Shown: positions 2,556-64,000 of the stretch, piece after piece | How the letters are laid out: each line of letters begins with the position of its first letter | How positions within the stretch are numbered: the stretch's first letter is position 1 | DNA from: an uncultured Acidobacteriaceae bacterium | Lineage (GTDB): Bacteria > Acidobacteriota > Terriglobia > Terriglobales > Acidobacteriaceae | Assembly (NCBI GenBank): GCA_963758505.1 | Contig: CAVWVJ010000002.1 | Location: 3,237 to 67,236, forward strand | Reading direction: 5' to 3' | Length of the DNA stretch: 64,000 nt | Made by a program: the position numbers and the translations under genes | Notes under the pieces: generated by a model | Told to the model about the DNA's origin: nothing | What the model saw: only the letters and a program-made list of their open reading frames with translations | The model's database searches: none

Positions 2556-4289
2556 CTAGTTGCGGACGCGGCGCTGGTGGGTGCTGGGAATGCGCATATC
2601 TTCGCGGTATTTCGCGACGGTGCGGCGGGTGACCTGGATTCCCTGCGACTGCAGGATGCGGGTGATCTGCTCGTCGGTCAGCGGACGGGCGGGATCTTCT
2701 TCTTCGATCAGCTTTTTCACGCGGCGCTTGAGGATGAGCAGCGAAGTGGCTCCGCCTTCGGGGCCGTTGACGCTTTCACTGAAGAAGTAACGCAGCTCGT
2801 ACACGCCTTGCGAGGTGTGGACGTATTTGTTGGCTACGGCGCGGCTGACGGTCGAGGGGTGGACGCCGATTTCCTCGGCGACCTCTTTGATCATCATCGG
2901 CTTGAGCTGGTCGATACCCTGGTCGAGGAAGTCGCGCTGGCGGTTGATGATCGAGTAGCAGACTTTCAAGATCGTCTGCTTGCGCTGCTCGATGTTCTTG
3001 ATGAGCTGGATCGCCGACTTGTAGCGCTCTTTGACGTAATTGCGAACGTCTTTTTCCGCGGCGTCGCGGTTCAGCAGACGTTTATAGCCGGGATTCACGC
3101 GAAGCTGCGGGATCTCTTCGTCGTTCATCACCACGATGTACTCGTCGCCCTGCTTGACGAAGGCCACATCGGGCTCGATGAGGCGGGTTTCCTGCTTGTT
3201 GTAGCGGAGACCCGGCTTGGGATCGAGGGTGCGGACGAAGTCGAGGGCGGCAGTGACGGCTTCGAGCGGACGGCCTAGCGCCTTCGCGATTTCCTTATAT
3301 TGTTTGTTCTGCAGCTCGCGCATGTGGTCGGTGACCATGTTGATGGCGTCATCGATGGCCTGGGCGATGTGTCCGTTGCCGTTCTTGTGCGGCATGGACT
3401 CGAAGTAGCGGAGCTGGATGAGGAGGCATTCGCGCAGGTCGCGGGCGGCGATGCCGATCGGGTCCAGGTTCTGGAGGATGTGAATGGCTTCCTGGAGAGC
3501 GTCGCGGCTGAAAGGGACGGCGGCGGGCGTTGTGCGCCGCGGAACCAGGCTCGGGCGCGGGGTTTCGATGGTCTGCACCTGAACGGGCGTATGCTCTTCC
3601 GCTTCCCGCTCGAGGCCGTCGGATGGCGTGTTGGTGGTTGCAAAGACCGCCATATCCAAAGCCGCAATCTGCTCATCGACATCGGAGGCGAGCACGAGGG
3701 CGGAATCAAGAACGTCTTTGGGGTCTGGATCGCTGGACAGTTCAACAGGCTCTTCCGAGACGATTCCGAGAAGTTCGTCGTCGCTCGCGGTCAGGTAGCC
3801 TTCGTCGTTCAGATTGCCGATGATGAGGTCGGCGGCAGCCGCGACATCGTCTTTCAGGTGCATCGAGCCAAGCTGCCACATGAGGTGGTCGGTCAGAGTG
3901 GTGGGCTTGGAGAGGAAATTCTCGAAGGAGGGGCGTTCGACGTCTTCGATTTCGCTGGTACTACGGTAGCCCGGGTCGAGATATTCCTGAAAAAACGAGC
4001 CAAAATCGATCTCTTCGAACGGGTCCTTGGCTTCCGGAGTAGCGGGTGTCTCTTCGGTGGCAACGGCGGAATCCCGCTCACGTTGCTCCTCTTTGGCCGA
4101 AACATCGTCCAGAAGGGGGACATTTTCGTCCAGTTCCTCCAGGACCGGGTTCTCAATCATCTCCTCATTGATCATCTCCTTGAGCTCCATCTTATTGAGC
4201 GCAAGGACGCTGACCATCTGAACCAGACCCGGCGTGAGGATCTGTTTCTGAGAGACCTTCAGATTGAGCTTTGGCTGGAGCAGCACCAT
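2556..4289 (-). CDS. rpoN: RNA polymerase sigma-54 factor
   Basis: N-terminal MVLLQPKLNLKVSQKQILTPGL..ENPVLEE (region I), HTH, and the C-terminal RpoN box RRTVAKYRE. Lies downstream of lptB as in many Gram-negatives. Start placed at the conserved MVLLQ rather than the ORF-maximal 4370. Confidence 0.9.
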   Translation of the reverse strand: MVLLQPKLNLKVSQKQILTPGLVQMVSVLALNKMELKEMINEEMIENPVLEELDENVPLLDDVSAKEEQRERDSAVATEETPATPEAKDPFEEIDFGSFFQEYLDPGYRSTSEIEDVERPSFENFLSKPTTLTDHLMWQLGSMHLKDDVAAAADLIIGNLNDEGYLTASDDELLGIVSEEPVELSSDPDPKDVLDSALVLASDVDEQIAALDMAVFATTNTPSDGLEREAEEHTPVQVQTIETPRPSLVPRRTTPAAVPFSRDALQEAIHILQNLDPIGIAARDLRECLLIQLRYFESMPHKNGNGHIAQAIDDAINMVTDHMRELQNKQYKEIAKALGRPLEAVTAALDFVRTLDPKPGLRYNKQETRLIEPDVAFVKQGDEYIVVMNDEEIPQLRVNPGYKRLLNRDAAEKDVRNYVKERYKSAIQLIKNIEQRKQTILKVCYSIINRQRDFLDQGIDQLKPMMIKEVAEEIGVHPSTVSRAVANKYVHTSQGVYELRYFFSESVNGPEGGATSLLILKRRVKKLIEEEDPARPLTDEQITRILQSQGIQVTRRTVAKYREDMRIPSTHQRRVRN

Positions 4290-4440
4290 AAATGTCTTTT
4301 GGAGGCGACCTTTAGATTTTAAACCAGAAGTGGACGATTTCATTTGCACATAAGTTACTTTCGGAACCATACCAAGGAGAATTGGTGAAGGAAATGCTTA
4401 GGGATTTGTGGGTCAAAAACGGTGGTCACAGGTTGCGGAG

Positions 4441-5169
4441 TTAAACGAGGGTGAAACTTTCGCCGAGATAAACGCGCTTGACCTCGGGATCGCTGCCGAG
4501 TTCTTCGGGGGTGCCGGCGCGGAAGATGCGGCCTTCATTAATGATGTACGCGCGATCGGTGACAGAGAGGGTTTCGCGGACGTTGTGGTCGGTGATGAGC
4601 ACGCCGATGCCGCTGGCCTTGAGATCGAAGATGATCTTTTGAATATCGAGAACGGCAATGGGATCGATGCCGGAGAAGGGCTCGTCGAGGAGGATGAACG
4701 CCGGGGAGATGCAGAGACACCGGGCGATCTCGACACGGCGGCGTTCGCCACCGGAGAGTGAATAACCTTTGCTTTTGCGAATGTGCCCGAGACCGAGCTG
4801 GTCGATGAGGCGCTCCATGCGTTCGCGGCGCTCATGCCACGAGATCGGTTGTGCTTCGAGCACCGCCAGGATATTTTCTTCGACCGTGAGCTTGCGAAAT
4901 ACGGAGGGTTCCTGGGGCAGGTAGCTGATGCCGTAATTGCGCGCGCGGAGATACATCGGAACGTCGGTGATCTCTTTGTCGTCGATGACCACGCGGCCGG
5001 TATCGAGGGGGATGAGGCCCACGATCATGTAGAAGCTGGTAGTTTTGCCGGCGCCGTTGGGACCGAGGAGGCCGACGACCTCGCCCTGCTCCACATGGAT
5101 GTTGACGCCGTTCACCACACGTCGGCCGCGGTAGGTTTTCCCCAGTTCTTCAGCCGAAAGGATACTCAT
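4441..5169 (-). CDS. lptB: LPS export ABC transporter ATP-binding protein
   Basis: Walker [13 protein letters not shown] signature LSGGERRR, Walker B ILLDEPF. Synteny lptA/C-lptB-rpoN. Confidence 0.9.
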
Positions 5170-32983: not shown

Positions 32984-33030
32984 CTTGTCATCCCGAGGAG
33001 CGCAGCGACGTGGGGATCTGCTGTTTTGTC
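32984..33030. repeat. Single copy of the cttgtcatcc(n)gaggagcgcagcgacgt.gggatctgctg repeat module
   Basis: cttgtcatcccgaggagcgcagcgacgtggggatctgctgtttt. The same module appears in the 56.6-57.6 kb array. Confidence 0.85.
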
Positions 33031-49570: not shown

Positions 49571-49735
49571 CTCTTGTCATCCTGAGCGAAGAACGCGAAG
49601 CGTTCGCAGTCGAAGGACCTCTACCGCCAGAAGACTGCCCCGCGTTCAGCCCACTTTGCTCTTACTCACTCCAACATTTCTCTTGTTGTCATCCAGAGGA
49701 GCGAAGCGACGTAGGGATCTGCTGTTCTGCTAGAG
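49566..49735. repeat. Two copies of the tgtcatcc(t/a)gag... repeat module
   Basis: cttgtcatcctgagcgaagaacgcgaagcgttcgcagtcgaaggacc and ttgttgtcatccagaggagcgaagcgacgtagggatctgctg. Confidence 0.8.
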
Positions 49736-52344: not shown

Positions 52345-55300
52345 CTAAAACTCTACTCTGGCCTGGAACGCAATCATTCTCGGACTGCTATCTCCACCGA
52401 GTCCCACACCCAGCAGTCCCGTGGGCGGCGCCGTCGTGTAAGTCAACGCTCCAAAACCGGTCTGGGTCGCCGCCTTTCCAGGAATTCCCGCCAGCACGTT
52501 GCTAGGCAGCCCAAAGTTGGGATGGTTGAAGACGTTGAAGAACTGCCCCTCGAAACGAAGTTTGACCCGTTCGTTCAGTTGAAACCATTTCGTCAGGTAA
52601 AAATCGCTCCAGAAAAAATTGGGACCCCGCAATGCATTGCGGCCAAGATCCCCGAACTGGCAATGCGCCGCGTTGTCACCTCCGGCGCAGGCACCCGTGC
52701 TCGGATCAACCGCCGATTGAAACGCATTCGGATTCAACCACTGGATCGTGCCGGGCTGGGTCACGCCGGCGATCTCACAATTCCTGCAGTAGGGATCTGA
52801 CCCCGGAACGAGGCTCGCGAATTGCGGTCCGGCACCCTGAACAATGCCATTGCCATCCGCCGAATACGGAGTGCTCAGCACGGAAAAGGGCACACCGCTA
52901 TGGAAGAAAACGCTTCCGGAAATCTGCCACCCGTTTACCGCATATCCAAGCGCTCGGCTCTTCGCCTTGATCGGTAACTCGTATACATACTGCCCTGTGA
53001 GGTTATGGCGGATGTCATAGTCGCATGGGCCATAATCCCGGCGAAGGTCTCCGGGAAGAGGAGAAAGCAGCGCGCCGGCGGAGAACTGTAAAAACCCGCC
53101 ATTTGAAACTTCGTCGAGGCAATGGCTCCACGTGTAATTAATTTGTCCTTGCAACCCATGTCCCATCCGCTTCGACGCCGTGAGTTGCAGCCCGTTGTAA
53201 TTGCTGCCGGCCCCCGTCTCCAGTTGCGTGACCGCCGCAAACCTCGGATCCACCGGCTGCATGTAAGGAAATGGAGCGAAGCATCCCGCACACACCGTCT
53301 GGTATCCGTTCACCTGCGTAAGGTAGGGCTGGTCCACGGCTCGTGTCCCGACGTACTGCGCCTGCACGCTGCCGGTCTGGCCAAACTGGTGTTCGATCCC
53401 CAGGCTCCACTGCATGAAATACGGTGCGTGCAGTTCACCACTCGGCACTGCGGTCATCCCCACGGGAGCCAGGCACGTTGCGGGATTTGCCATGGCCGAC
53501 CCGCACGAAAGCTCTCCTTGTGCGAAGCCGCTGGCGAATTGCTGATGCGCCGCGACCGTCGCATCCACCGCACTGTTCGGAACTCCCGGCGCGATGGCAC
53601 TCCCGCCCGCCGACCCCAGCAGCCCGCCCTGAAATGTCTGCACGTAGGGCGGGTTCGCGCCTATCAGGTCGGCCACGCTTCCCGGCATGATATCGCTGAA
53701 CAGGCCGAAGCCCGCGCGCAGCACCGTGTTGTGCTCGACTTGCCACGCGATCGCCATCCTCGGCTGCAGGATGGCCATGGGAGTGGAGGAAAACAGGTGC
53801 CCGAGGTTGGTCTGAATCACAGCGTTCAGCGGCTGGTTCAAATCGTGCGAAATCGAATCGAAAGCTCCCTTCAGCCGTGCCACGTGATCGTGCGGATTGA
53901 GCGGATTCGAGTTCAGGGTGTCGCGAATGCCAAAGGTCCACGTGAGGTTGGGCGTGATCTTCCACGTGTCCTGGGCATACAGATCCAGGTTCAGGAAGTT
54001 GAATGGCTCATTGGCAGTTGCCGGAAACGTCTCGGTCGCGGTGGACGCCACTCCGTAGATGAACTGCGGCAGTGTCGCGTAACTTACCGTTGGGGTTGTG
54101 CCTTCGCCGAAATCGAAATCGTTCAGACGAAAAATTCGCGTGTTCGTGCCGAACCGCAGCTCGTGCGCCCCGTGGCTCCACGCGAGGTTGTCGTTGAGAA
54201 ACAATCGCCCGGCGCGCCGTCCCTGGACCCAGGTGTTGTCCAGCCCTCCGAGTGTCGTAAACGGGGCGTTCCCCCCGCCGCCCTGCAGCACGATCGGAAA
54301 TGCTGCCAGCGTTTGTTGCAGATCGCCTGGCCCGAACAGGCTCTCGTACCAGGAAAACGCGGGGTTAAAGTAATTGACCAGGTTTTGCGAAAACACGTGC
54401 GAATGTCCCGCCGCGAACGAATACAGCGGCTGCGAAGAGATCGCGTTGAACACCGGATTGATCGCGTCCGTATAGGCCGCTTGTAAGCCCGTGTCCGATT
54501 GAAAACGAAACCAGGCGGTATCCTTCGGCCCAATGTTGTAGTCGATCCGCGCCGTCTGCACCTGCTCTTTGTCGTCGCTGGAGTGCGAAACGCCTCTGCG
54601 GTTCGCACAACCATTGCCGTTCGCTGGAGATCCCGTTGCGGAACTGCCATCCGCATTGAATGGGCACCCGAGCACCGCGAGTGGCGTTCCGCTGGTGGCC
54701 CCATACAACGAAAACAACTTCCTGTAGAACGGCACCAGTTCGGGTGCGGGCGCATAGTGTGCCCCCGTGAGTGCATCCGTCCCGCCCTGCGGAAGCTGCT
54801 GTAACACGTAGTTCTGGAATGCTGCGCTCGGAACGGTGATGGTGTTGAAGATGGGCAGCGCAATCCGCACCCACTCGCTGTCGAAGAAGAAGAAAAGCTT
54901 GTCGTGCAGAATCGGTCCCCCGAGGCTCCCCCCGAAGTGGTTCACCGTCGAGCGTGGCTTGTGGTTCTCTGATGTGGTATTCGCGAAGTAGTTCGCTGCA
55001 TCCAGCAGCGATCCGTTCCACAATTCATAAAGGTTTCCGTGAAACCGGTTCGTGCCCGACTTCGTCACGTAGTTCACTTGCGACGCGCCGTAGCGCCCCT
55101 GGTCCACTGCGTAGGAAAGCGTATTTACGGTTACTTCCGATATCGAATTCAGGCCGAGGACCAGGTTCGTCGCCAACCCGCTGTTCAGGTTCGTGAGTGG
55201 ATCGTTCGTTTCCAGCCCGTCGACGATATATCCGTTCGAAAGCGCAGGGAGCCCGTTGAACTCCACGTTGCCATAGCCGTTCGTGCCTCCGACGAAGTCG

Positions 55301-55833
55301 TTGCCGCTGCCCGCCGTATTGATCAGCGCTCCCGGCGCGAACTGCAGCGGGTACGTCAGGTCGCCGCCCGGATTCGGCAGATCTTCCAGCGCAGGCGAAC
55401 TTAAGGTCGTCGTGGTGTTCGCGTTTCCTGGATTCAAAATCGGAGCCTCCGCGCTGACCTTGATCACCGTCTTCGATTGCGCCGGATGAAGCCTGAAATT
55501 CACCGTCTGTTTTTGCCCGAGCCCGGCAGGTACCGTCTCTGCAACCTGCCGATCAAAGCCGGGCGCTGTCGCTTCCACCCGGTAGGAACCGGACTTCAAC
55601 TGCGGAAAATCGAAGCGCCCAGCGCGATCGGCAACCGCGGTGCGCTGTAACCCGGTATCGCGGTTCACGATCGTTACCGTCGCGCCTGGCAGCGCCGCAT
55701 CGCTTGCGTCCCGTACCTCTCCAACGATGGCGCTGGTTGTCTCTCCCTGCGCCCATGCGCCAGGCGGATACGCGAGTACGGCCGCGGAAATAAGCATGCC
55801 GATGCACCAGGTAACGAAATGGCCATTGGCCAA
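52345..55833 (-). CDS. TonB-dependent receptor with an N-terminal carboxypeptidase-regulatory-like domain (1162 aa)
   Basis: Signal peptide. GEVRDASDAALPGATVTIVN..G...T......G.F.F..L..G.Y (CarbopepD_reg fold). Plug and a long beta-barrel ending in ..FQARVEF (aromatic terminal residue). Confidence 0.85.
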   Translation of the reverse strand: MANGHFVTWCIGMLISAAVLAYPPGAWAQGETTSAIVGEVRDASDAALPGATVTIVNRDTGLQRTAVADRAGRFDFPQLKSGSYRVEATAPGFDRQVAETVPAGLGQKQTVNFRLHPAQSKTVIKVSAEAPILNPGNANTTTTLSSPALEDLPNPGGDLTYPLQFAPGALINTAGSGNDFVGGTNGYGNVEFNGLPALSNGYIVDGLETNDPLTNLNSGLATNLVLGLNSISEVTVNTLSYAVDQGRYGASQVNYVTKSGTNRFHGNLYELWNGSLLDAANYFANTTSENHKPRSTVNHFGGSLGGPILHDKLFFFFDSEWVRIALPIFNTITVPSAAFQNYVLQQLPQGGTDALTGAHYAPAPELVPFYRKLFSLYGATSGTPLAVLGCPFNADGSSATGSPANGNGCANRRGVSHSSDDKEQVQTARIDYNIGPKDTAWFRFQSDTGLQAAYTDAINPVFNAISSQPLYSFAAGHSHVFSQNLVNYFNPAFSWYESLFGPGDLQQTLAAFPIVLQGGGGNAPFTTLGGLDNTWVQGRRAGRLFLNDNLAWSHGAHELRFGTNTRIFRLNDFDFGEGTTPTVSYATLPQFIYGVASTATETFPATANEPFNFLNLDLYAQDTWKITPNLTWTFGIRDTLNSNPLNPHDHVARLKGAFDSISHDLNQPLNAVIQTNLGHLFSSTPMAILQPRMAIAWQVEHNTVLRAGFGLFSDIMPGSVADLIGANPPYVQTFQGGLLGSAGGSAIAPGVPNSAVDATVAAHQQFASGFAQGELSCGSAMANPATCLAPVGMTAVPSGELHAPYFMQWSLGIEHQFGQTGSVQAQYVGTRAVDQPYLTQVNGYQTVCAGCFAPFPYMQPVDPRFAAVTQLETGAGSNYNGLQLTASKRMGHGLQGQINYTWSHCLDEVSNGGFLQFSAGALLSPLPGDLRRDYGPCDYDIRHNLTGQYVYELPIKAKSRALGYAVNGWQISGSVFFHSGVPFSVLSTPYSADGNGIVQGAGPQFASLVPGSDPYCRNCEIAGVTQPGTIQWLNPNAFQSAVDPSTGACAGGDNAAHCQFGDLGRNALRGPNFFWSDFYLTKWFQLNERVKLRFEGQFFNVFNHPNFGLPSNVLAGIPGKAATQTGFGALTYTTAPPTGLLGVGLGGDSSPRMIAFQARVEF

Positions 55834-55905
55834 GTAACACCTCCTGCCGTTCGGCGCACAAGCGGTCGCACCCCCTCCGGAGGTTATTACAATACACCAA
55901 GTTGG

Positions 55906-55922
55906 TTAACTATGATTAACTA
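55906..55922. promoter_or_regulatory. Direct repeat TTAACTA-n3-TTAACTA in the receptor upstream region (candidate operator)
   Basis: ttggTTAACTAtgaTTAACTAcc lies 73-89 nt upstream of the receptor start, downstream of the DtxR/MntR-family gene. Confidence 0.25.
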
Positions 55923-55933
55923 CCGGGAAGAGA

Positions 55934-56587
55934 TTATGATTTACGAATCCAGACCTTTTCGGCGGCCGCCGCGCCGAGCCGGCTGGGTCGTCCCTGGATC
56001 GCCACCGAAATCGTGCCGTCGTAGTTGCGCGCCTCGACCGCAATGCGCGCGCCAGGCCTGATGCCCTCCGCCGCGAAAAACTGCAGCAGCTTGCGGTCCC
56101 GCTCGTAAACGCTTGCCACCGTGTACTTGGTGCCGCCCTCAGCTTCGCTCAACAGGCGCAGCCCGCGCTTTCGCCGCTCCGCCGGACTCCGCATTCCCAG
56201 TCCATTGCCATGCGGACAGGTATCCTTGCGCCCCAACTTCTCCAGCAGTTTCTTTTCGAACGCGGGCGACACGGCATGTTCCAGCCGCTCCGCCTCATCG
56301 TGAATCTCGTCCCACGGCATGTTGAACATCTCGGCCAGCATCCGCTCGATCAAGTGATGGCGGACGATCGTCCGCTCGGCGATGGCCCGTCCTTCGGCTG
56401 TCAGGGAAATCTGTCCGTCGGCTTTGGTCGAAACGAACCCATCTTTTCGCAGACGCTTCAACGCGAACGTGACCGCCGGCCGGCTTACCGACAGCCAGTG
56501 AGCGAGGGTAGCCGGAATTACGCTCACTCCCTCGGCCGCCGCTTCGGCGATTGCCTTCAGATAATCCTCTTTGGAAATGGTGATCAT
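55934..56587 (-). CDS. DtxR/MntR-family metal-dependent transcriptional regulator with a C-terminal FeoA/SH3-like domain
   Basis: EDYLKAI, HTH ..LAHWLSVSRPAVTFALKRL, metal-site helix HHLIERML and a C-terminal FeoA-like segment. Confidence 0.8.
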   Translation of the reverse strand: MITISKEDYLKAIAEAAAEGVSVIPATLAHWLSVSRPAVTFALKRLRKDGFVSTKADGQISLTAEGRAIAERTIVRHHLIERMLAEMFNMPWDEIHDEAERLEHAVSPAFEKKLLEKLGRKDTCPHGNGLGMRSPAERRKRGLRLLSEAEGGTKYTVASVYERDRKLLQFFAAEGIRPGARIAVEARNYDGTISVAIQGRPSRLGAAAAEKVWIRKS

Positions 56588-56618
56588 GTCGGTAAGCAAC
56601 AAACCGCTGCAGTCTACC

Positions 56619-57560
56619 ACTCTGCACTCCGTTGCTCTCTCTTGTCATCCAGAGGAGCGCAGCGACGTAGGGACCTGCTGTCCTGCCCCGCGGCCAGCCC
56701 ACAACTCTCTCCGCGCTCCATCGCTCTCTCTTGTCATCCAGAGGAGCGCAGCGACGTAGGGACCTGCTGTCCTGCCCCGCGGCCAGCCCACAACTCTCTC
56801 CGCACTCCATTGCTCTCTCTTGTCATCCAGAGGAGCGCAGCGACGTAGGGACCTGCTGTTCACGGCCCGCCGCGGAAGAGCACGACCTCACTCCTGCAAA
56901 ACCGAAAAGTTTGTATCAGGGCACGACTTCAGTCGTGCCGCTCGCCGCCCACAGAACCGGGCTTCAGCCCCTGCAAACAGCTCCGCGGCCAGCCCACAAC
57001 TCTCTCCGCACTCCATTGCTCTCTCTTGTCATCCAGAGGAGCGCAGCGACGTAGGGACCTGCTGTCCTGCTCCGCGGCCAGCCCACAAACTCTCTCCGCC
57101 CTCCGTTGCTCTCTCTTGTCATCCAGAGGAGCGCAGCGACGTAGGGACCTGCTGTTCACGGCGCGCTGCAGAAGAGCACGACCTCTCCTGTAAAACCGAA
57201 AAGTTTGTATCAGGGCACGACTTCAGTCGTGCCGCTCGTCGCCCACAGAACCGGGCTTCAGCCCCTGCAAACAGCCCCGCGGCCAGCCCACAACTCTCTC
57301 CGCCCTCCATTGCTCTCTCTTGTCATCCAGAGGAGCGCAGCGACGTAGGGACCTGCTGTCCTGCTCCGCGGCCAGCCCACAACTCTCTCCGCACTCCATT
57401 GCTCTCTCTTGTCATCCAGAGGAGCGCAGCAACGTAGGGACCTGCTCTCCTGCCCCGCGGCCAGCCCACAAACTCTCTCCGCACTCCATTGCTCTCTCTT
57501 GTCATCCAGAGGAGCGCAGCGACGTAGGGACCTGCTGTCCACGGCGCGCTGCAGAAAAGC
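56619..57560. repeat. Higher-order tandem array: 8 copies of an 89-90-bp unit (starts 56641, 56730, 56819, 57025, 57115, 57319, 57408, 57498), interrupted twice by a ~115-bp hairpin-containing module
   Basis: Unit: cttgtcatccagaggagcgcagcgacgtagggacctgctgtcctgccccgcggccagcccacaactctctccgcactccattgctctct. Inserts carry gtttgtatcagggcacgacttcagtcgtgcc and gggcttcagcccctgcaaacag. Confidence 0.95.
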
Positions 57561-57806
57561 CCACCATCACACCCACCCCGTACACCCGTCACATACTTCG
57601 TGACACGATCCGCCTATTCTGCGCATGTGGGGCATTCCCACCAGGAATTGTTCTTTGTTAACAAATGCGGTAAACTCCCGAGAAAGCGCATGGTCGCGAA
57701 TTCTCGTAACTATGCCGCCTAACTCCAATTTCCGGCATATTTTACCCGCAACTCATCCGGAATCTATATTTTGCGCAGATTGCATAGCCTAAAGGCAATA
57801 AAACGC

Positions 57807-57835
57807 TTGACACACATGTGTTCCAAGTGTACTAT
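57807..57835 (+). promoter_or_regulatory. Sigma-70-like promoter inside IRL (TTGACA-17 nt-TACTAT) for the transposase
   Basis: TTGACA at 57807-57812, a 17-nt spacer and TACTAT at 57830-57835. The ATG at 57843 implies a near-leaderless mRNA. Confidence 0.5.
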
Positions 57836-57842
57836 TTTAGGC

Positions 57843-58844
57843 ATGGAAACACCTCGTACCTTGCAAGCTGCGATTGGCTACTTTGCCCATCCACAAAGGG
57901 CCTTTGAAGCCGCTGTTGAGTTCCGCTGGCCCGGTGGCAACGTGACTTGCCCTCGCTGCGGCAAGGCGAAGCATTCGTTCATCAAGACTCGCCGCATCTG
58001 GTTCTGCTACGAGTGCAAGAAGCAGTTCACCGTCAAAGTTGGAACCATCATGGAAGATTCGCCCATCACTCTCGACAAGTGGATGGTCGCTCTTTGGATG
58101 TTGGCGAACTGCAAAAACGGAATCAGCAGCTACGAACTGGCGAAGGTTATCGGCATCCGTCAGAACTCGGCATGGTTCATGCTGCACCGTATTCGCGAAG
58201 CGATGAAAGAACCGAACCTTGGCCGGAAAATGGGCGGTGGCCCCGGTAGCGAGTGCGAAGTGGATGAAACGTACATCGGCGGGAAAGCCATCAATATGCA
58301 CAAGGGTCGCCGCATTCGTGCCATGGCTCAGGGCCACAAGGGAAAGACTATTGTGCAGGGTTTCTATGACCGCGAAGTGCGCAAGGTTCGCGCACAGGTA
58401 GTTCCCAACATCAAGCGGGAGACTTTGCAGAATGCGGTTTTGAATAACATCAAATACGGTTCCACCGTCTACACCGACGACGCAGTAGGTTACGACAAGT
58501 TGAAGAACCGTTTCGTGCATGACGTGGTGAACCACAGCTTGCAGTATGTCAAGGGTCGGGTGAGCACGAACGGATGCGAAAATTTCTGGGCGCTTTTGAA
58601 GCGAACACTGCACGGAACATATGTGAGCGTCGAACCTTTTCACCTTGACGCTTACATTGACGAGCAGGTTTTCCGCTTCAATAACCGTGCGACGAAAGAC
58701 AACAAACTCACGGACGCGGATCGCTTCGCATTCTTGATGGCACAGGTCGCCGGAAAGCGACTGACTTATGCGGAATTGACGGGGAAGGACGCAGACTCGC
58801 TCCACCAGCAAACGGCAGAGACGGGGATGGAAGAGCCGTTCTAG
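57843..58844 (+). CDS. IS1595-family (ISXO2-like) transposase
   Basis: N-terminal zinc ribbon CPRCG...CYECKKQFTVKVGTIMEDS, an HTH region (ISSYELAKVIG) and a DDE-type core (VDETYIGGK ... VYTDD ... NGCENFW). Confidence 0.9.
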   Translation: METPRTLQAAIGYFAHPQRAFEAAVEFRWPGGNVTCPRCGKAKHSFIKTRRIWFCYECKKQFTVKVGTIMEDSPITLDKWMVALWMLANCKNGISSYELAKVIGIRQNSAWFMLHRIREAMKEPNLGRKMGGGPGSECEVDETYIGGKAINMHKGRRIRAMAQGHKGKTIVQGFYDREVRKVRAQVVPNIKRETLQNAVLNNIKYGSTVYTDDAVGYDKLKNRFVHDVVNHSLQYVKGRVSTNGCENFWALLKRTLHGTYVSVEPFHLDAYIDEQVFRFNNRATKDNKLTDADRFAFLMAQVAGKRLTYAELTGKDADSLHQQTAETGMEEPF

Positions 58845-59013
58845 TCCCTGCCGCTGCCGGATGGCTTGCGTGTGGTAACTTTTCTCTTGGGCTGTTTCTT
58901 GGAGTTCTCGACCCTGGGAGCTTTGAAAACAGCCCTCGCCAATTGCTCGAAATTCTCCCCCGCCTTTTGTCCTTCTCGATATTCGTGCTTCACGCAGTCT
59001 CCAGTTCATAATT

Positions 59014-59826
59014 CTAATCCAAGTCGAACCTACAAACGATATCGGCTCCTTCGTATGTCACCGTCATCAGGAATGGTTCTGTCGGAGTCCAAGGGGGACT
59101 CTGGATAAAAAATCGAAGCGCATTAGGAGCTAGCTTAACCGGAGATCCCCCCATCGTGGCTGGCGCTCCAATGGGCTGAAGGAAGCCCGAAGAGAGGGCC
59201 TGATTGCATATGACGTGGCTAGCGACCGGGTTCACATCCTTGTTCGTAATCATGATGAAACGAGATTTGTGGGGAGTCGCTTGCATGTCGGTATCTAATA
59301 ACACCACTGTGGTCTTTTGCGCTGCTGGCGTTAGTAGCTTTAGAGCCTGCGTTTGGCAGTTATTAATCGTATTCTGCTGGTCGCGGTTCTGAGTGCTTAA
59401 TGTCTTATTCTCGCCATCCATATGTGCCTTTTGAACTCCGCAGTCACCGAGCTGACGAGTAAATTCTCCGGTCGTATTCTGAAGTGTGGCTGCGTTAGCT
59501 GTAATAGTCAGACGTTGCGCTTTCGACCGCCCGACTAGCCCTTCATGGTCTTCGTAGACGGCCTTCCCAACTGACCAAATAACGACTGGTCCATAGATCA
59601 CCAGTGAGCACCAAAGCGCGAAGCGCATGGGGCCTTTATATTCCTCCCGCCACTGGCTCAGCATGGCGCGCAATCCTGATTTGCGATGGGTCTTAAGTAG
59701 GAGCACGAGCGCAAGCGACACGGCGAATGCGACATCGATAACCCTTCCCAAAAGGGTCGTGCCGATCGCGTAAAAGAAGATGGAACCCGCCGACGCGAGA
59801 AGGTTGAGTAAGTGACGCAGCCACAT
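59014..59826 (-). CDS. Hypothetical membrane protein (IS passenger gene): three N-terminal TM helices, a Gln/Asn/Thr-rich linker and a beta-rich C-terminal domain
   Basis: 270-aa ORF lying entirely inside the IR-bounded element, convergent with the transposase. No recognisable motif. Confidence 0.6.
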   Translation of the reverse strand: MWLRHLLNLLASAGSIFFYAIGTTLLGRVIDVAFAVSLALVLLLKTHRKSGLRAMLSQWREEYKGPMRFALWCSLVIYGPVVIWSVGKAVYEDHEGLVGRSKAQRLTITANAATLQNTTGEFTRQLGDCGVQKAHMDGENKTLSTQNRDQQNTINNCQTQALKLLTPAAQKTTVVLLDTDMQATPHKSRFIMITNKDVNPVASHVICNQALSSGFLQPIGAPATMGGSPVKLAPNALRFFIQSPPWTPTEPFLMTVTYEGADIVCRFDLD

Positions 59827-59979
59827 GGCGAAAGGGTACTCCCCTCTAATATGGGAACCCCATGCAAATACAACATTACATGCCCCACATGTGCGTCAAC
59901 CGTTTTATTGCCAGCCTAAACTGCTGAAACGGCAGGAGGGTGGGGGAGGGGGGTGAGAGTACGAATCAGTAAACAGCGA

Positions 59980-60717
59980 TCATTGGCTCAGTACCATCGT
60001 TCCCAGCACCGCCTTCTGCTTCACGATGAGCTGATCGATCCCCGCTTTTGCCAGCGCGAGCATCTCGGCCAACTGCTGATCGTCGAAGGGATGCTGTTCC
60101 GCGGTCCCCTGGATCTCGACCATCTTCCGGCTTCCCGTCATCACGATGTTCATGTCCACCTCGGCGCGCGAATCCTCTTCGTACGCCAGGTCGAGCAGCG
60201 CGGCGCCATCGACGATGCCGACGCTGGTCGCGGCCACGTAATCGCGCAGCGGCGAGACCGTCAGTGTGCCCGCTTCGGTCAGCTTCTGCACTGCAAGCGC
60301 AACCGCCACGAACGCTCCGGTGATGGACGCGGTCCGCGTTCCGCCATCGGCCTGGATCACGTCGCAATCCACCCATACGGTGCGTTCGCCGAGCTTGGTC
60401 AGATCGGTCACCGCCCGGATGGAGCGGCCGATGAGCCGTTGGATCTCATGGGTGCGTCCCGACTGCCGTCCCTTGGACACCTCGCGCGTGGTGCGCGTCA
60501 GGGTGGCGCGAGGCAGCATGCCGTACTCGCTCGTCACCCATCCCTTACCGCTGTTACGCAGGAAGGGTGGGACCGTCTCCTCGATCGATGCGGTGCAGAT
60601 CACGCGCGTGTTGCCGATCTCGATGAGACACGAGCCTTCGGCCGTAGAGATGTAATCAGGCAGGATGTTGACGGGACGCATCTGGTCGGGAGCGCGATTG
60701 TCCGAGCGGTAGATCAT
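59980..60717 (-). CDS. rph: Ribonuclease PH
   Basis: R.DGR...Q.R-like N-terminus ([13 protein letters not shown]), [12 protein letters not shown] and [13 protein letters not shown] motifs. Confidence 0.9.
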
Positions 60718-60777
60718 CTCCCGATTGTAATCGCGGGAGCCCTGGAGTGAGTTCCGGGGCTCCCGCTCTGTGTGAGC

Positions 60778-61626
60778 TTAGAAGACGTCGAAATCCGGTG
60801 CGCTGGGAGCGGAGCCCGGATCCGGGGTGGCCTTCACCGCATTCAGCACCGTCTTCAGCGTGGATTGGTGCTGGAAGAACATCGTCGAACGGTATCCGCG
60901 TTTCACCCCCGGGCCGACCACGATCGCCGCAACGTGTCCACCCCCGTGGGCCTTGTCGCTGTCGTACGATTCGTCGAAGACGATGATGAGGATACCGTCT
61001 TTCTTGAATTCGGCGTTGTTGAGAAGAGGCGCTATGTTGGTCTTCAGCCACGCGTCCGCTGCCTGCAGGCTGCCGCTATGTGCGTCGTGAATGATGTTCG
61101 GCGCGATGAAAGAAAATGTCGGCAAGGCTCCGCTCGCCAGGTCCTTAGAGAACTGCGTGAACGGAACAAGATGCTGCTTCTGGACGGAGCTGTTTGCCAC
61201 ATCGGTGAAATAGGCGAGCGGATTGTGATGCTTCAGATAGTAGCCGGTGTTACCGCCCGTGTATCCGACGTACGGCAGCCCCTCGGCATACGATTTCCAG
61301 GTCTTTCCGATCAGCAGAAGTTCACGAACCACGTTGTCCGCGTTGACGGTTCCGGAATAATTGTCGTTGTTGGTGATGACCTGGCCGGCGGTCATCTCCA
61401 TGTAGTTGCCAATCGACGGATGGGAGTTGGCATAGTAGTTGGTGAGCAGAGCATAACTTTTGGCGAGCGAGTTCAAATACGGCATCGCCGAGCTGCCGAT
61501 GACGCTGGAGTAGCTATGATTCTCTTCGACAAGGACGACTACGTGATTGGAAGGAGGAACTGCGGCCAACATCGAAGCGCTGCAAATTCCGAGCAGTACG
61601 GCGACACGAACGACTTTCACGAACAT
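60778..61626 (-). CDS. Secreted phosphoesterase-family protein (acid phosphatase/phospholipase C-like)
   Basis: Signal peptide. HVVVLVEENHSY, PS..NY, NIIHDAH and IVFDES motifs. Confidence 0.75.
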   Translation of the reverse strand: MFVKVVRVAVLLGICSASMLAAVPPSNHVVVLVEENHSYSSVIGSSAMPYLNSLAKSYALLTNYYANSHPSIGNYMEMTAGQVITNNDNYSGTVNADNVVRELLLIGKTWKSYAEGLPYVGYTGGNTGYYLKHHNPLAYFTDVANSSVQKQHLVPFTQFSKDLASGALPTFSFIAPNIIHDAHSGSLQAADAWLKTNIAPLLNNAEFKKDGILIIVFDESYDSDKAHGGGHVAAIVVGPGVKRGYRSTMFFQHQSTLKTVLNAVKATPDPGSAPSAPDFDVF

Positions 61627-61765
61627 CCTTTACCTCGATTGGGGGAGTTATCGAAGGGCGTACTTGTAGGATGCCTGCTGATCAACTCAGGCTGAATAGG
61701 AAATGGGTGTCGTAGAGACACCCATTTGAACTAGGGCGAATTGGGAGTTGCCGCGGGTTTTTAAC

Positions 61766-62935
61766 TCACAATTCACGCAGCGCAACCGCGATGCGGGCGC
61801 GCGCGGCGCGTACGGCAGGAGGAACTCCGCCCGCGATGCCCATGATTACGGAGAAGATAATGCCTCCGATCACGAGTTGCGGCGTGACCTGGAAGGCGAA
61901 TGCGAGATGGGAAAATGTCTGAAAGTTCATTGTTCCCGTGGTGAGCCCGTTCACCGGCAAAACAGCAATACAGCCCAGAACACCTCCAATGACCGCAATG
62001 CAGATCGCCTCGATCATGAACGACATCACGACACTGCCGGCGCCGAAGCCGAGTGCGCGCATGGTGGCGATCTCACGTCCGCGCTCCGAAACAGCGGAGT
62101 ACATGGTATTGAGCGCGCCGAGAATCGCACCTACCGCCATCACTGCCGCGACCAGCCCCCCAAGCACCGTGATGAGCGTCGTCATGGTTCGTGATTGCTT
62201 TTCGTAGTAGTCGCGCTCGCGCTGCACTTGCACTGTCAAACGCGGATCGGTCGTGACCGCATCCTTAAACTTGTCGAACGCACTCGCGGATTCGAGATGT
62301 ACGGTCAGCGACTGGAAGCTGTTTTGCGGACGCTTGTACACCTGGTCAAGAATTGCACTGTCGCACCAGAGCTCGGAATCGAACGCGCTGCCGCCGGCGT
62401 CGAAGACGCCAACGACGGTCCACTCGCCGCCACCAAAGCGGACCGTGTTGCCGAGTTCGAAGCCGCTGTAGGTCGCTGCAACGTTACGGCCGACAATCAG
62501 CTCATTTTTCCCGGGCTCGAACGCACGGCCACGGCTCATGTGAACATTTGGACGCACATCGAAGATCTGCGGTGAGACTCCGCGTACCTGGACGTTGGCA
62601 TCGGTTCCGGTGCTCTTCAGCGGGAAAGCCGCGATCACCACAACTTCCGGGCTGACGACCGGCTGTCCATTCTTGCGCGCGACGCCCGGGGCATCCTCGA
62701 TCACCTTTACCTGGTCGAGTCCCATGCCACTCATCATCTCCGAAGTCGCGCCACCGCGCAGAACGATGGCATTGTCGGGCAGCCCGCTGTGGACGAGAGT
62801 CGCCTGGAACCCGTGCGCCAGGGCGAGCATGGCAACAAAAACACCTACCGTGCCCGCGATGCCGATGACAGCGACCAGGGTGGAGGTCCAGCGCACACCC
62901 AGGCTGCGAACGTTGTAAGAAAGAGGAATGGCCAT
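61766..62935 (-). CDS. ABC transporter permease, FtsX/MacB-like
   Basis: N-terminal TM helix, a large periplasmic domain and a C-terminal FtsX 3-TM bundle (RGREIATMRALGF). Confidence 0.8.
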   Translation of the reverse strand: MAIPLSYNVRSLGVRWTSTLVAVIGIAGTVGVFVAMLALAHGFQATLVHSGLPDNAIVLRGGATSEMMSGMGLDQVKVIEDAPGVARKNGQPVVSPEVVVIAAFPLKSTGTDANVQVRGVSPQIFDVRPNVHMSRGRAFEPGKNELIVGRNVAATYSGFELGNTVRFGGGEWTVVGVFDAGGSAFDSELWCDSAILDQVYKRPQNSFQSLTVHLESASAFDKFKDAVTTDPRLTVQVQRERDYYEKQSRTMTTLITVLGGLVAAVMAVGAILGALNTMYSAVSERGREIATMRALGFGAGSVVMSFMIEAICIAVIGGVLGCIAVLPVNGLTTGTMNFQTFSHLAFAFQVTPQLVIGGIIFSVIMGIAGGVPPAVRAARARIAVALREL

Positions 62936-62936
62936 C

Positions 62937-64000
62937 TCACACTCTCCGAATCGCGTCCACGACGCGCAGACGGCTTGCATTGATTGCTGGAATGATGCCC
63001 GCGAGGAATGCGATCGCAAGGGTGATGACGACGCCTTCGATCGCCTTATCCATGGGCAAGAAGACAAACTGCAGGAAGCTGCCGAGAGCTTTCTCGATTC
63101 CCGGCAACATGAGCATAAGGAGAACCAGACCGATGATCACGCCGATGGAAGCGACCAACAACGCCTCGGCGATGATCAGCACGAGGACAAAGGTATCGGT
63201 GTAGCCAATCGCTTTGAGGACCGCGAGCTCGCGCACACGCTCACGAATCGACATCGCCATGGTGTTCCCGATGACCAGCAGCAGGGTGAAGAAGACGATG
63301 CTGCCGATGATGGTAATCATGAGACCGATGTTTCCGGTCTGCTTGGCCCATCCGGCGAGCATCTCCTTTTCCGTTTGGGTCTTGGTTTCGGTCGAAGAAT
63401 TGGCAAACATCGTATCGATTTCTTTACTGATGCGAACCGCGTCGTCGGGATTATCGATACGAACGATGTACCAGCCGACCGTGCCTTTTCCGAAACCGCG
63501 GCGTTCGTCGAAGAGCTTCCAATGCAGCCAGAACTGGCTGGTATCCTCGTCGGGCTTGTCGGCGTGGTAAATGCCACGGATGTTGAACGACCACGATTGG
63601 CCGCCGCCCCAGAGCACTCCGGTGAGGGGAACGCGGTCGCCCACTTTGAAGCCGTAGCGCTTCGCCGTCTTCTCGCCGACGATTGCGCCTTCCCGGTCTT
63701 CGAGCCATGCCTTCCACTCGGCGTCGCTGATCTTGAACTCGGGATACATCTGCCGGTACCCCACCTCATCGATGGCGTACTGCGGGAAGAAGTTCTTCTC
63801 GTCCTGGTAGACCGCGCCGAACCAGTTCGCGTAGGTCACGGCCTTTACTCCCCGGATCTGCTCGATCTTTTCCTTGTAAGCCTGCGGCACCGGCTGAATG
63901 ATGGAGACGCGGTTCTGCACCATGAGGCGATCGACACCCGCCATGCTGTTCAGCGCGCCGTTGAATGAATTGTTCACGATCGCCAGGATGCCGAACAGGA
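62937..64000 (-). CDS. ABC transporter permease, FtsX/MacB-like (5' end outside the window)
   Basis: FtsX motif RVRELAVLKAIGY and C-terminal TM helices. The ORF is open at the window edge. Confidence 0.75.
   Translation of the reverse strand, partial: LFGILAIVNNSFNGALNSMAGVDRLMVQNRVSIIQPVPQAYKEKIEQIRGVKAVTYANWFGAVYQDEKNFFPQYAIDEVGYRQMYPEFKISDAEWKAWLEDREGAIVGEKTAKRYGFKVGDRVPLTGVLWGGGQSWSFNIRGIYHADKPDEDTSQFWLHWKLFDERRGFGKGTVGWYIVRIDNPDDAVRISKEIDTMFANSSTETKTQTEKEMLAGWAKQTGNIGLMITIIGSIVFFTLLLVIGNTMAMSIRERVRELAVLKAIGYTDTFVLVLIIAEALLVASIGVIIGLVLLMLMLPGIEKALGSFLQFVFLPMDKAIEGVVITLAIAFLAGIIPAINASRLRVVDAIRRV

Follow-up and report, generated by a model that had tools for sequence, protein, structure and literature searches.

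The IS1595 family of insertion sequences (IS) is defined by a single transposase gene, whose product combines a zinc ribbon (in all subgroups but IS1016) with a DDE_Tnp_IS1595 domain, by terminal inverted repeats (IRs), and by an 8-bp target-site duplication (PMC8101967). Members that carry passenger genes are known as "transporter IS" (tIS), a term that passages of PMC3129680, PMC9330008, and PMC8101967 attribute to Siguier, Gagnevin and Chandler (2009). Here, we describe an element of this kind in a 64,000-nt stretch of DNA from an uncultured Acidobacteriaceae bacterium, which is referred to as the window. The 2,119-bp segment 57794-59912 is an intact IS1595-family element, of which the boundaries, the target-site duplication, and the intact reading frames are established. 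It shares with the family both transposase domains, IRs that start with GG, and the 8-bp duplication, and with tIS the presence of extra genes inside the IRs. In contrast to the single gene of the family, three genes are located between its IRs, encoding a transposase, a protein of 50 amino acids, and a cargo protein of 270 amino acids; the element is therefore placed among the passenger-carrying derivatives rather than the simple IS. The cargo varies independently of the rest of the element, the backbone.

Capture systems of the ISEcp1 (IS1380 family) and ISCR types are similar in that one transposase module is joined by diverse genes on one fixed side. They differ from the present element, in which two regular IRs enclose the cargo and the unit as a whole is surrounded by the 8-bp duplications. 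The internal original right end that marks ISEcp1-like one-ended capture was found neither in the window nor among 48 elements of the clade. Integron cassettes and the IS231-related mobile insertion cassettes (MICs; PMC3129680) likewise combine conserved flanks with a variable, usually single-gene payload, and many of their payloads are unrelated. In contrast to integrons, no integrase gene was seen in the open reading frame (ORF) lists and Pfam scans of this clade, and neither attC-like sites nor recombinase genes were seen; in contrast to MICs, each element carries its own transposase, and the payloads are nearly all predicted to be membrane-anchored. An assignment to toxin-antitoxin or anti-phage defence systems is not indicated either, as neither the cargo nor the small protein of the window has a match in Pfam, NCBIfam, PADLOC, or PHROGs. 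Two features set this clade apart from the family as described, the constant convergent gene of ~50 amino acids and the slot whose content differs between near-identical backbones; no description of such a gene or of a sharply bounded, highly variable slot was found in the literature searched, which did not include the founding tIS paper. The clade is associated with Acidobacteria and apparently undescribed.

Structure of the Element and Its Target Site

The IRs of 27 bp are complementary at 25 of 27 positions and are the sole two matches to this repeat in the 64 kb at up to three mismatches, where the chance expectation is 0.00. The octamer AGCCTAAA occurs twice in the window, once directly outside each IR. 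The recurrence of an 8-mer in 64 kb is not rare per se (26 of 100 shuffles), so that the evidential weight of AGCCTAAA lies in its exact abutment to both IRs. The G+C content of the element (0.527) is lower than that of the flanks (0.601 and 0.591), and the insertion is situated in intergenic DNA, 59 bp past the stop codon of rph, which encodes RNase PH.

These observations bear out most of what an earlier note, made from the nucleotide sequence alone, had claimed for this locus: a 2,119-bp segment with an IS1595-type transposase between 27-bp IRs, an octamer repeated immediately outside both ends, a G+C content below that of the surroundings, a position between a repeat array and rph, and a TTGACA-17-TACTAT promoter in the left inverted repeat (IRL) followed by a nearly leaderless ATG. 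The note had also considered that homologs might have other boundaries and that the octamer might belong to the local repeat. The relatives described below have the same type of end, and the array is devoid of AGCCTAAA. With a probability of roughly 0.8, we consider the segment to be an intact and autonomous tIS, built from a constant backbone and a variable slot, that has inserted downstream of rph with duplication of AGCCTAAA.

Relatives in Soil Metagenomes

Relatives were found via transposase alignment in peat and forest-soil metagenomes, the contigs of which can be chimeric, and the best 80 of 140 confirmed loci were surveyed (loci are designated L001 and so forth). The transposases of these 80 loci are 54-73% identical to that of the window. 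Element ends were located by anchoring IRL on TTGAC (IR positions 14-18) and then seeking the inverted partner. Both ends were recovered in 57 elements including that of the window, and 37 of the 57 possess perfect 8-bp duplications; the lengths range from 1.83 to 3.34 kb, apart from one element of 1,414 bp. The terminus type GGCAAT...CTTGACACACATGTG of the window IRL is also present in relatives, and a Terracidiphilus metagenome-assembled genome, identified by a genome search with the cargo protein, contains a locus (L001) with the same layout and the same IR sequence as the window. The termini shared among relatives, together with the 8-bp duplications that these possess in their own right, validate the boundaries in the window. 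The two mismatches between the window IRs fall on positions 13 and 19, at which IRL and the right inverted repeat (IRR) differ throughout the clade, and thus represent the native state rather than decay.

The duplications further reveal a target preference. Among 34 distinct duplications (L024-L103 plus the window), 17 contain either TTA (positions 2-4) or TAA (positions 5-7), for which the background is 1.4%. The position counts approximate the palindrome CTTA-TAAG, the right half of which is fitted by AGCCTAAA. The G+C content of the element was below that of its flanks in all 39 of 39 loci. The ISNwi1/ISNwi1+ subgroup of IS1595 has ends of the form ggnnatTAT; several relatives (GGCAATTAT...) fit this pattern and the window (GGCAATAAA) fits it partly, which we take as no more than a lead to the subgroup. 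The coordinates of the features in the window are collected in Table 1.

Table 1. Features of the IS1595-family element in the window.
Feature	Position (nt)	Strand	Details
Left 8-bp target-site duplication	57786..57793		AGCCTAAA; abuts IRL; TAA at positions 5-7
IRL, 27-bp left inverted repeat	57794..57820	+	GGCAATAAAACGCTTGACACACATGTG; holds the -35 box of the transposase promoter
Transposase promoter, TTGACA-17 nt-TACTAT	57807..57835	+	10/12 consensus matches; ATG 7 nt after the -10 box
Transposase gene, 333 aa	57843..58844	+	Zinc ribbon, residues 20-61; DDE domain, residues 137-280
Candidate catalytic residues D141, D212, N247, plus K253	58263-58265 (D141), 58476-58478 (D212), 58581-58583 (N247)	+	Invariance in relatives
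Small conserved gene, 50 aa, GTG start	58841..58993	-	VKHEYREGQKAGENFEQLARAVFKAPRVENSKKQPKRKVTTRKPSGSGRD; GGAG 5 nt upstream of GTG
Cargo gene, 270 aa	59014..59826	-	Convergent with the transposase gene; ORF, homolog alignment, AlphaFold2 model
Cargo, predicted membrane helices	59566-59826	-	Residues 1-87
Cargo, predicted long stalk helix	59332-59565	-	Residues 88-165; ends in the conserved motif QNRDQQNTINNCQTQALKLL
Cargo, motif QNRDQQNTINNCQTQALKLL	59332-59391	-	Residues 146-165; nearly invariant; homolog alignment
Cargo, predicted beta-sandwich	59020-59313	-	Residues 172-269; model
IRR, 27-bp right inverted repeat	59886..59912	-	Inward reading GGCAATAAAACGGTTGACGCACATGTG; differs from IRL at positions 13, 19
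Right 8-bp target-site duplication	59913..59920		AGCCTAAA; abuts IRR

Three loci have unusual arrangements. The inverted repeat of L097 (1388-1435 and 3622-3669) runs ~25 nt past the normal terminus (CCCTTGGGTGGCCCTTGGGTG...) and lacks a clean duplication, as if the element had inserted into a different palindromic repeat or recombined inside one. L115 (3159-5896) and L116 (518-3255) each contain two IS1595-type transposase genes (378 and 336 amino acids) in opposite orientation within 600 bp, suggestive of adjacent or nested insertions of related elements.

Transposase and Its Promoter

The transposase of the window matches Pfam PF12760 (Zn_ribbon_IS1595, E = 9.8e-13) and PF12762 (DDE_Tnp_IS1595, E = 2.3e-37, covering 149 of 153 profile positions), the latter being the predicted catalytic domain. 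It scores 172.7 bits against the NCBIfam IS1595 model NF033547, for which the cutoff is 75, and is full length by comparison with relatives. Among 67 distinct intact transposases, no variation is seen at C36, C39, C55, C58, D141, D212, N247, K253, and R254. Since residue 246, a glutamate in the window, is variable, the third catalytic residue is likely to be N247. Its identity to any of the IS1595 transposases on 72,556 plasmids is below 40%.

The promoter layout is conserved as well: a 17-nt spacer is present in 65 of 66 distinct relatives, the -10 box has the form TAnnnT, and the ATG follows mostly 6-7 nt on. With the ATG of the window at 7 nt past the -10 box, the mRNA would be leaderless or nearly so, given the predicted transcription start. 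The transposase would thus be expressed from a promoter whose -35 box is contained in IRL, probably as a leaderless mRNA.

The Small Conserved Gene

The small gene and the transposase gene meet tail-to-tail, their stop codons overlapping in the palindrome CTAG. The earlier note had recognized the 270-amino acid ORF, convergent and of unknown function, as a passenger; this part stands, but the small gene, which the note had missed, is a second extra gene. A homolog occupies the same place in ~74 of 80 relatives, where it converges on the transposase gene and adjoins the stop codon of the latter, and was also seen in independent look-ups; local tblastn E-values are lenient, although the positional consistency is strong. 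The small ORF is thus a constant hallmark of the clade. Codon positions 1, 2, and 3 show pairwise differences of 0.33, 0.27, and 0.54, respectively, among 62 distinct sequences. The excess at third positions indicates that the ORF evolves as a constrained protein-coding gene.

The consensus of the protein is MK..EY.EGP.A.ENFE....A.F..PK, followed by a K/R-rich tail that usually ends in SDKD/G. A profile search returned 1,519 clusters at 90% identity, all unnamed, with Terriglobales as the sole taxon label. The structural model has a single helix (residues 11-23), the remainder including the basic tail being extended or disordered (predicted local distance difference test (pLDDT) 68), and suggests that the protein works by binding a partner. 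Matches were absent from PDB sequences too. On plasmids, tblastn gave no match, and the small-ORF motif is lacking in the two nearest plasmid IS1595 elements (alphaproteobacterial, with transposases ~38% identical), which constitute the whole outgroup comparison. As far as tested, the small gene is specific to this IS1595 clade.

We infer an accessory function of the small protein for the element; the role that we prefer is that of a regulator or partner, either for the transposase or for its DNA ends, and the alternative is a role linked to the cargo. Transcription of the small gene, which converges on the transposase gene and would enter it at the 3' end, may in addition dampen transposase expression. 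In L123, a 53-amino acid ORF (4765-4926, minus strand), which may or may not be a member of the small-protein family, is situated just upstream of an IS1595 transposase gene (3737-4732, minus strand) on the same strand and not in the usual convergent position.

The Variable Slot

Between the small ORF and IRR, every complete element except L079 harbors one or two larger genes, sometimes more. The constant module consists of IRL, the zinc-ribbon/DDE(N) transposase, and the convergent gene for the 50-amino acid basic protein with its overlapping stop codon; the variable module extends from the small gene to IRR and in the window holds the 270-amino acid gene. The cargo family of the window, which shares the strand of the small ORF, is also present in L001/L029, L004-L009, L031, and L059. 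About 20 elements carry a second broad family (25-35% identity) on the strand opposite to the small ORF, and many of the remaining cargo genes are singletons. Nearly all slot proteins have predicted membrane helices, and known domains are almost absent. The uncharacterised cargo that the earlier note had seen inside the IRs is therefore not a one-off, since the slot varies clade-wide.

The variation of the slot is uncoupled from that of the backbone. Transposases that are 90-97% identical (L091/L092, L092/L101, L039/L042) are found beside cargo without detectable similarity. The DNA identity of 80-95% extends from IRL to about position 1,200, the start codon of the small ORF, beyond which it falls sharply to background level and returns only in the last ~27 bp, which correspond to IRR. 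The elements are thus mosaics of a conserved backbone and unrelated cargo. At the minimal end of the range, L079 (2748-4161) is a relative of 1,414 bp with the perfect duplication CTTACTTG, which contains the transposase and small genes only, followed by ~200 bp of unassigned DNA before IRR; it is either an ancestral form or a derivative that has lost its cargo by deletion.

The mosaic may have arisen by cargo replacement or by homogenisation of the 1.2-kb backbone through gene conversion between co-resident copies. In the second account no cassette is ever replaced; the elements are old and separately evolved, and their backbones have been homogenised between copies in the same genomes. The conserved block (~1,200 bp) is long enough for homologous recombination, in contrast to the ~27 bp available on the IRR side, and the lack of relic internal ends, attC-like sites, and recombinase genes agrees with this account, to which we assign a substantial chance, somewhat short of even. 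It leaves unexplained, however, the initial arrival of more than 15 cargo families, unrelated and in either orientation, at exactly the same slot, and both major cargo families are present in all backbone subclades. Capture of cargo via a surrogate end was considered and rejected, as relic internal ends are missing: in 48 elements, the interval from the small ORF to the cargo contains no internal copy of the IR core, the sole extra matches being those that abut IRR.

Further observations concern the content of the slot. L047 (3,342 bp), L058 (3,215 bp), and L068 (3,147 bp) contain two cargo genes of the second family in tandem, indicating that the slot can take more than one cassette. The only recurrent known domain is a crAss001_48-related, phage-associated Pfam domain (best E 9e-12), found in 2 of 46 cargo proteins. 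The two carriers are probably L042 (1331-2368, minus strand) and L099 (1752-2732, minus strand), as judged by blastp clustering and a shared LINEKTQLDNRI... stretch. PADLOC gave two isolated weak matches among the 46 proteins. Long minus-strand ORFs that start inside IRR (MTHMC...) were discarded as cargo; they are antisense artefacts, since only plus-strand frames are conserved across the elements.

The Cargo Protein of the Window

The cargo gene is situated 20 nt upstream of the small ORF on the same strand, and the pair appears to be co-transcribed. The public protein collection contains the product only in a 216-amino acid form that starts at Met55. As homologs conserve the N-terminus MWL.HL within the first 54 residues, the true start is taken to be the ATG at 59826, giving 270 residues. 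Homologs are at most 49% identical and conserve C157, C207, C265, and an SPAWTP motif in addition to QNRDQQNTINNCQTQALKLL. A family profile search returned 1,294 clusters at 50% identity. Members of the family are also found with no transposase close by (L003).

The AlphaFold2 model (mean pLDDT 88.4) contains helices at residues 2-21 and 25-62 and one helix at 64-165, followed by the beta-sandwich (172-269), which is composed of eight strands at a pLDDT of 95-98. Foldseek comparison with the PDB and with viral models gave weak matches to generic beta-sandwiches of the carbohydrate-binding and adhesin types, with no PDB match at E <= 0.001, and PDB sequence searches with the cargo and the small protein were empty or spurious. 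Residues 45-68 are K/R-rich and precede the last hydrophobic segment (69-87), which, together with the conserved cysteines, points to a periplasmic location of the stalk and the sandwich. The protein is thus predicted to be anchored in the inner membrane by three helices, with a coiled stalk of ~11 nm that carries a periplasmic, disulfide-bonded beta-sandwich. Such a protein would serve the host cell envelope, by binding or exclusion and under diversifying selection, rather than transposition.

Genomic Neighborhood

The element is flanked by the gene for a DtxR-type metal regulator on the left and by the genes for RNase PH and a phosphoesterase on the right. An 89-bp tandem repeat array stops at 57540, ~245 bp from the element. 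The array was considered as the source of the octamer or of the insertion site and was rejected; it is unrelated to the insertion site. It spans 56620-57540 with units of 89-90 bp, a higher-order period of 294 bp, and 95-96% matches. Its 37-nt core GTCATCCAGAGGAGCGCAGCGACGTAGGGACCTGCTG is also present as single copies at 32987-33023 and 49688-49724 of the window, which suggests that the array is a dispersed repeat, REP- or MITE-like in character, that has been amplified at 56620-57540. The array has no Rfam match, folds no better than shuffled sequence (z = -0.8), and contains many spurious overlapping ORFs; Rfam matches are absent across 54000-64000 as a whole.

Mobility, Retention, and Alternative Explanations

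In the window, both IRs, the duplication, the promoter, and a full-length transposase with all invariant residues are intact, and it is plausible from these sequence features that the element is still able to move. The earlier note had called the insertion recent and probably still mobile. The intact parts are consistent with this view, but neither an empty site nor a second copy came to light, and both recency and current mobility are best called plausible.

Several relatives have retained their cargo beyond the life of the transposase. In L004, a nonsense codon replaces the invariant W249; L114 has a transposase frameshift; ~30 bp of the transposase 3' end are left in L014; and L123 has an 80-amino acid transposase remnant. 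The cargo gene and the small ORF are intact in all four, which suggests host-level retention of the cargo, although the cases are few and the short length of the small ORF offers mutation little to hit. The cargo is probably useful to the host.

In a different explanation, the insertion is fixed and no longer mobile, and the host keeps a useful cargo and small gene beside a transposase that merely happens to be unbroken so far. The single copy in the window, the failure to find an empty site in metagenomes, the several relatives that are fixed at one site across many samples, and those with a dead or missing transposase would all fit. Even so, we regard a fixed insertion as unlikely here, because every part required for movement is intact, the IRs are in their native asymmetric form, and decay in relatives extends to the ends as well (in L004, the IRs match at 21 of 27 and the duplication at 6 of 8 positions).

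It is also conceivable, and in our judgement quite improbable, that the IS merely carries the small protein and the cargo as a module of two components with no part in transposition, for instance an addiction pair of the toxin-antitoxin type or a defence pair. In window-type elements, the two genes are adjacent and co-directional, being 20 nt apart in the window and overlapping at ATGA in L104, and the pair outlives the loss of the transposase in L004, L014, and L114. Specific partners, however, would be expected to co-vary, whereas conservation of the small protein stays at 40-80% across cargo genes that belong to unrelated families and even lie on different strands. Moreover, L079 keeps the small ORF without a large cargo gene, and toxin-antitoxin or defence matches are limited to the two PADLOC matches mentioned above.

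A chance arrangement of repeats around an old transposase gene, with the 270-amino acid ORF as an ordinary chromosomal gene, has a negligible probability: an octamer that occurs twice is not rare in itself, but a 27-nt repeat at up to three mismatches is not expected by chance, the octamers abut both IRs exactly, dozens of relatives have the same termini and gene order with 8-bp duplications of their own, and the drop in G+C content spans the whole segment.

The reading of the segment as an autonomous tIS also has an extended form. In it, the clade is a self-mobilising single-gene shuttle, which consists of a transposase with a previously undescribed, basic 50-amino acid cofactor or regulator and an exchangeable slot of very diverse beta-sandwich proteins, anchored in the inner membrane and exposed to the periplasm; the host would maintain these proteins, and diversifying selection would act on them, for instance through the exclusion of phages or competitors. 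We consider this extended form doubtful as a whole. Several points also weigh against the main reading of the segment as an intact, autonomous tIS and against the roles proposed for its proteins. A 23-mer that joins the flanks over a single AGCCTAAA had 0 matches in the metagenome contigs, and no second copy of the element is present in the 64-kb window. Gene conversion between backbones could yield the mosaic instead of cargo replacement. The periplasmic topology of the cargo draws on the positive-inside rule and the conserved cysteines, and no library or fold search yielded a function for the cargo or the small protein. The persistence of the small ORF beside decayed transposases (L004, L014, L114, and L123) fits a role linked to the cargo as well as one linked to the transposase. 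As IRL positions 14-18 served as the anchor of the survey, their apparent invariance is partly circular.

Implications

Passenger-carrying IS are usually treated as sporadic oddities. In the clade described here, which is a very large element family, passengers occupy a slot that is regular and has sharp bounds. The conserved 50-amino acid protein would add a new IS-encoded factor to a family described as transposase-only. Gene callers mis-annotate the unit, giving the cargo a truncated start of 216 amino acids and the small ORF the label "hypothetical" family-wide, and its recognition would help annotation across the phylum. If exchange of the slot is active, these elements would provide a simple vehicle that shuffles single envelope-protein genes among the abundant Acidobacteria of soil and peat. 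If the shuttle reading is true, the clade would represent a cassette-bearing IS of a new type, from which new families of envelope proteins could be drawn.

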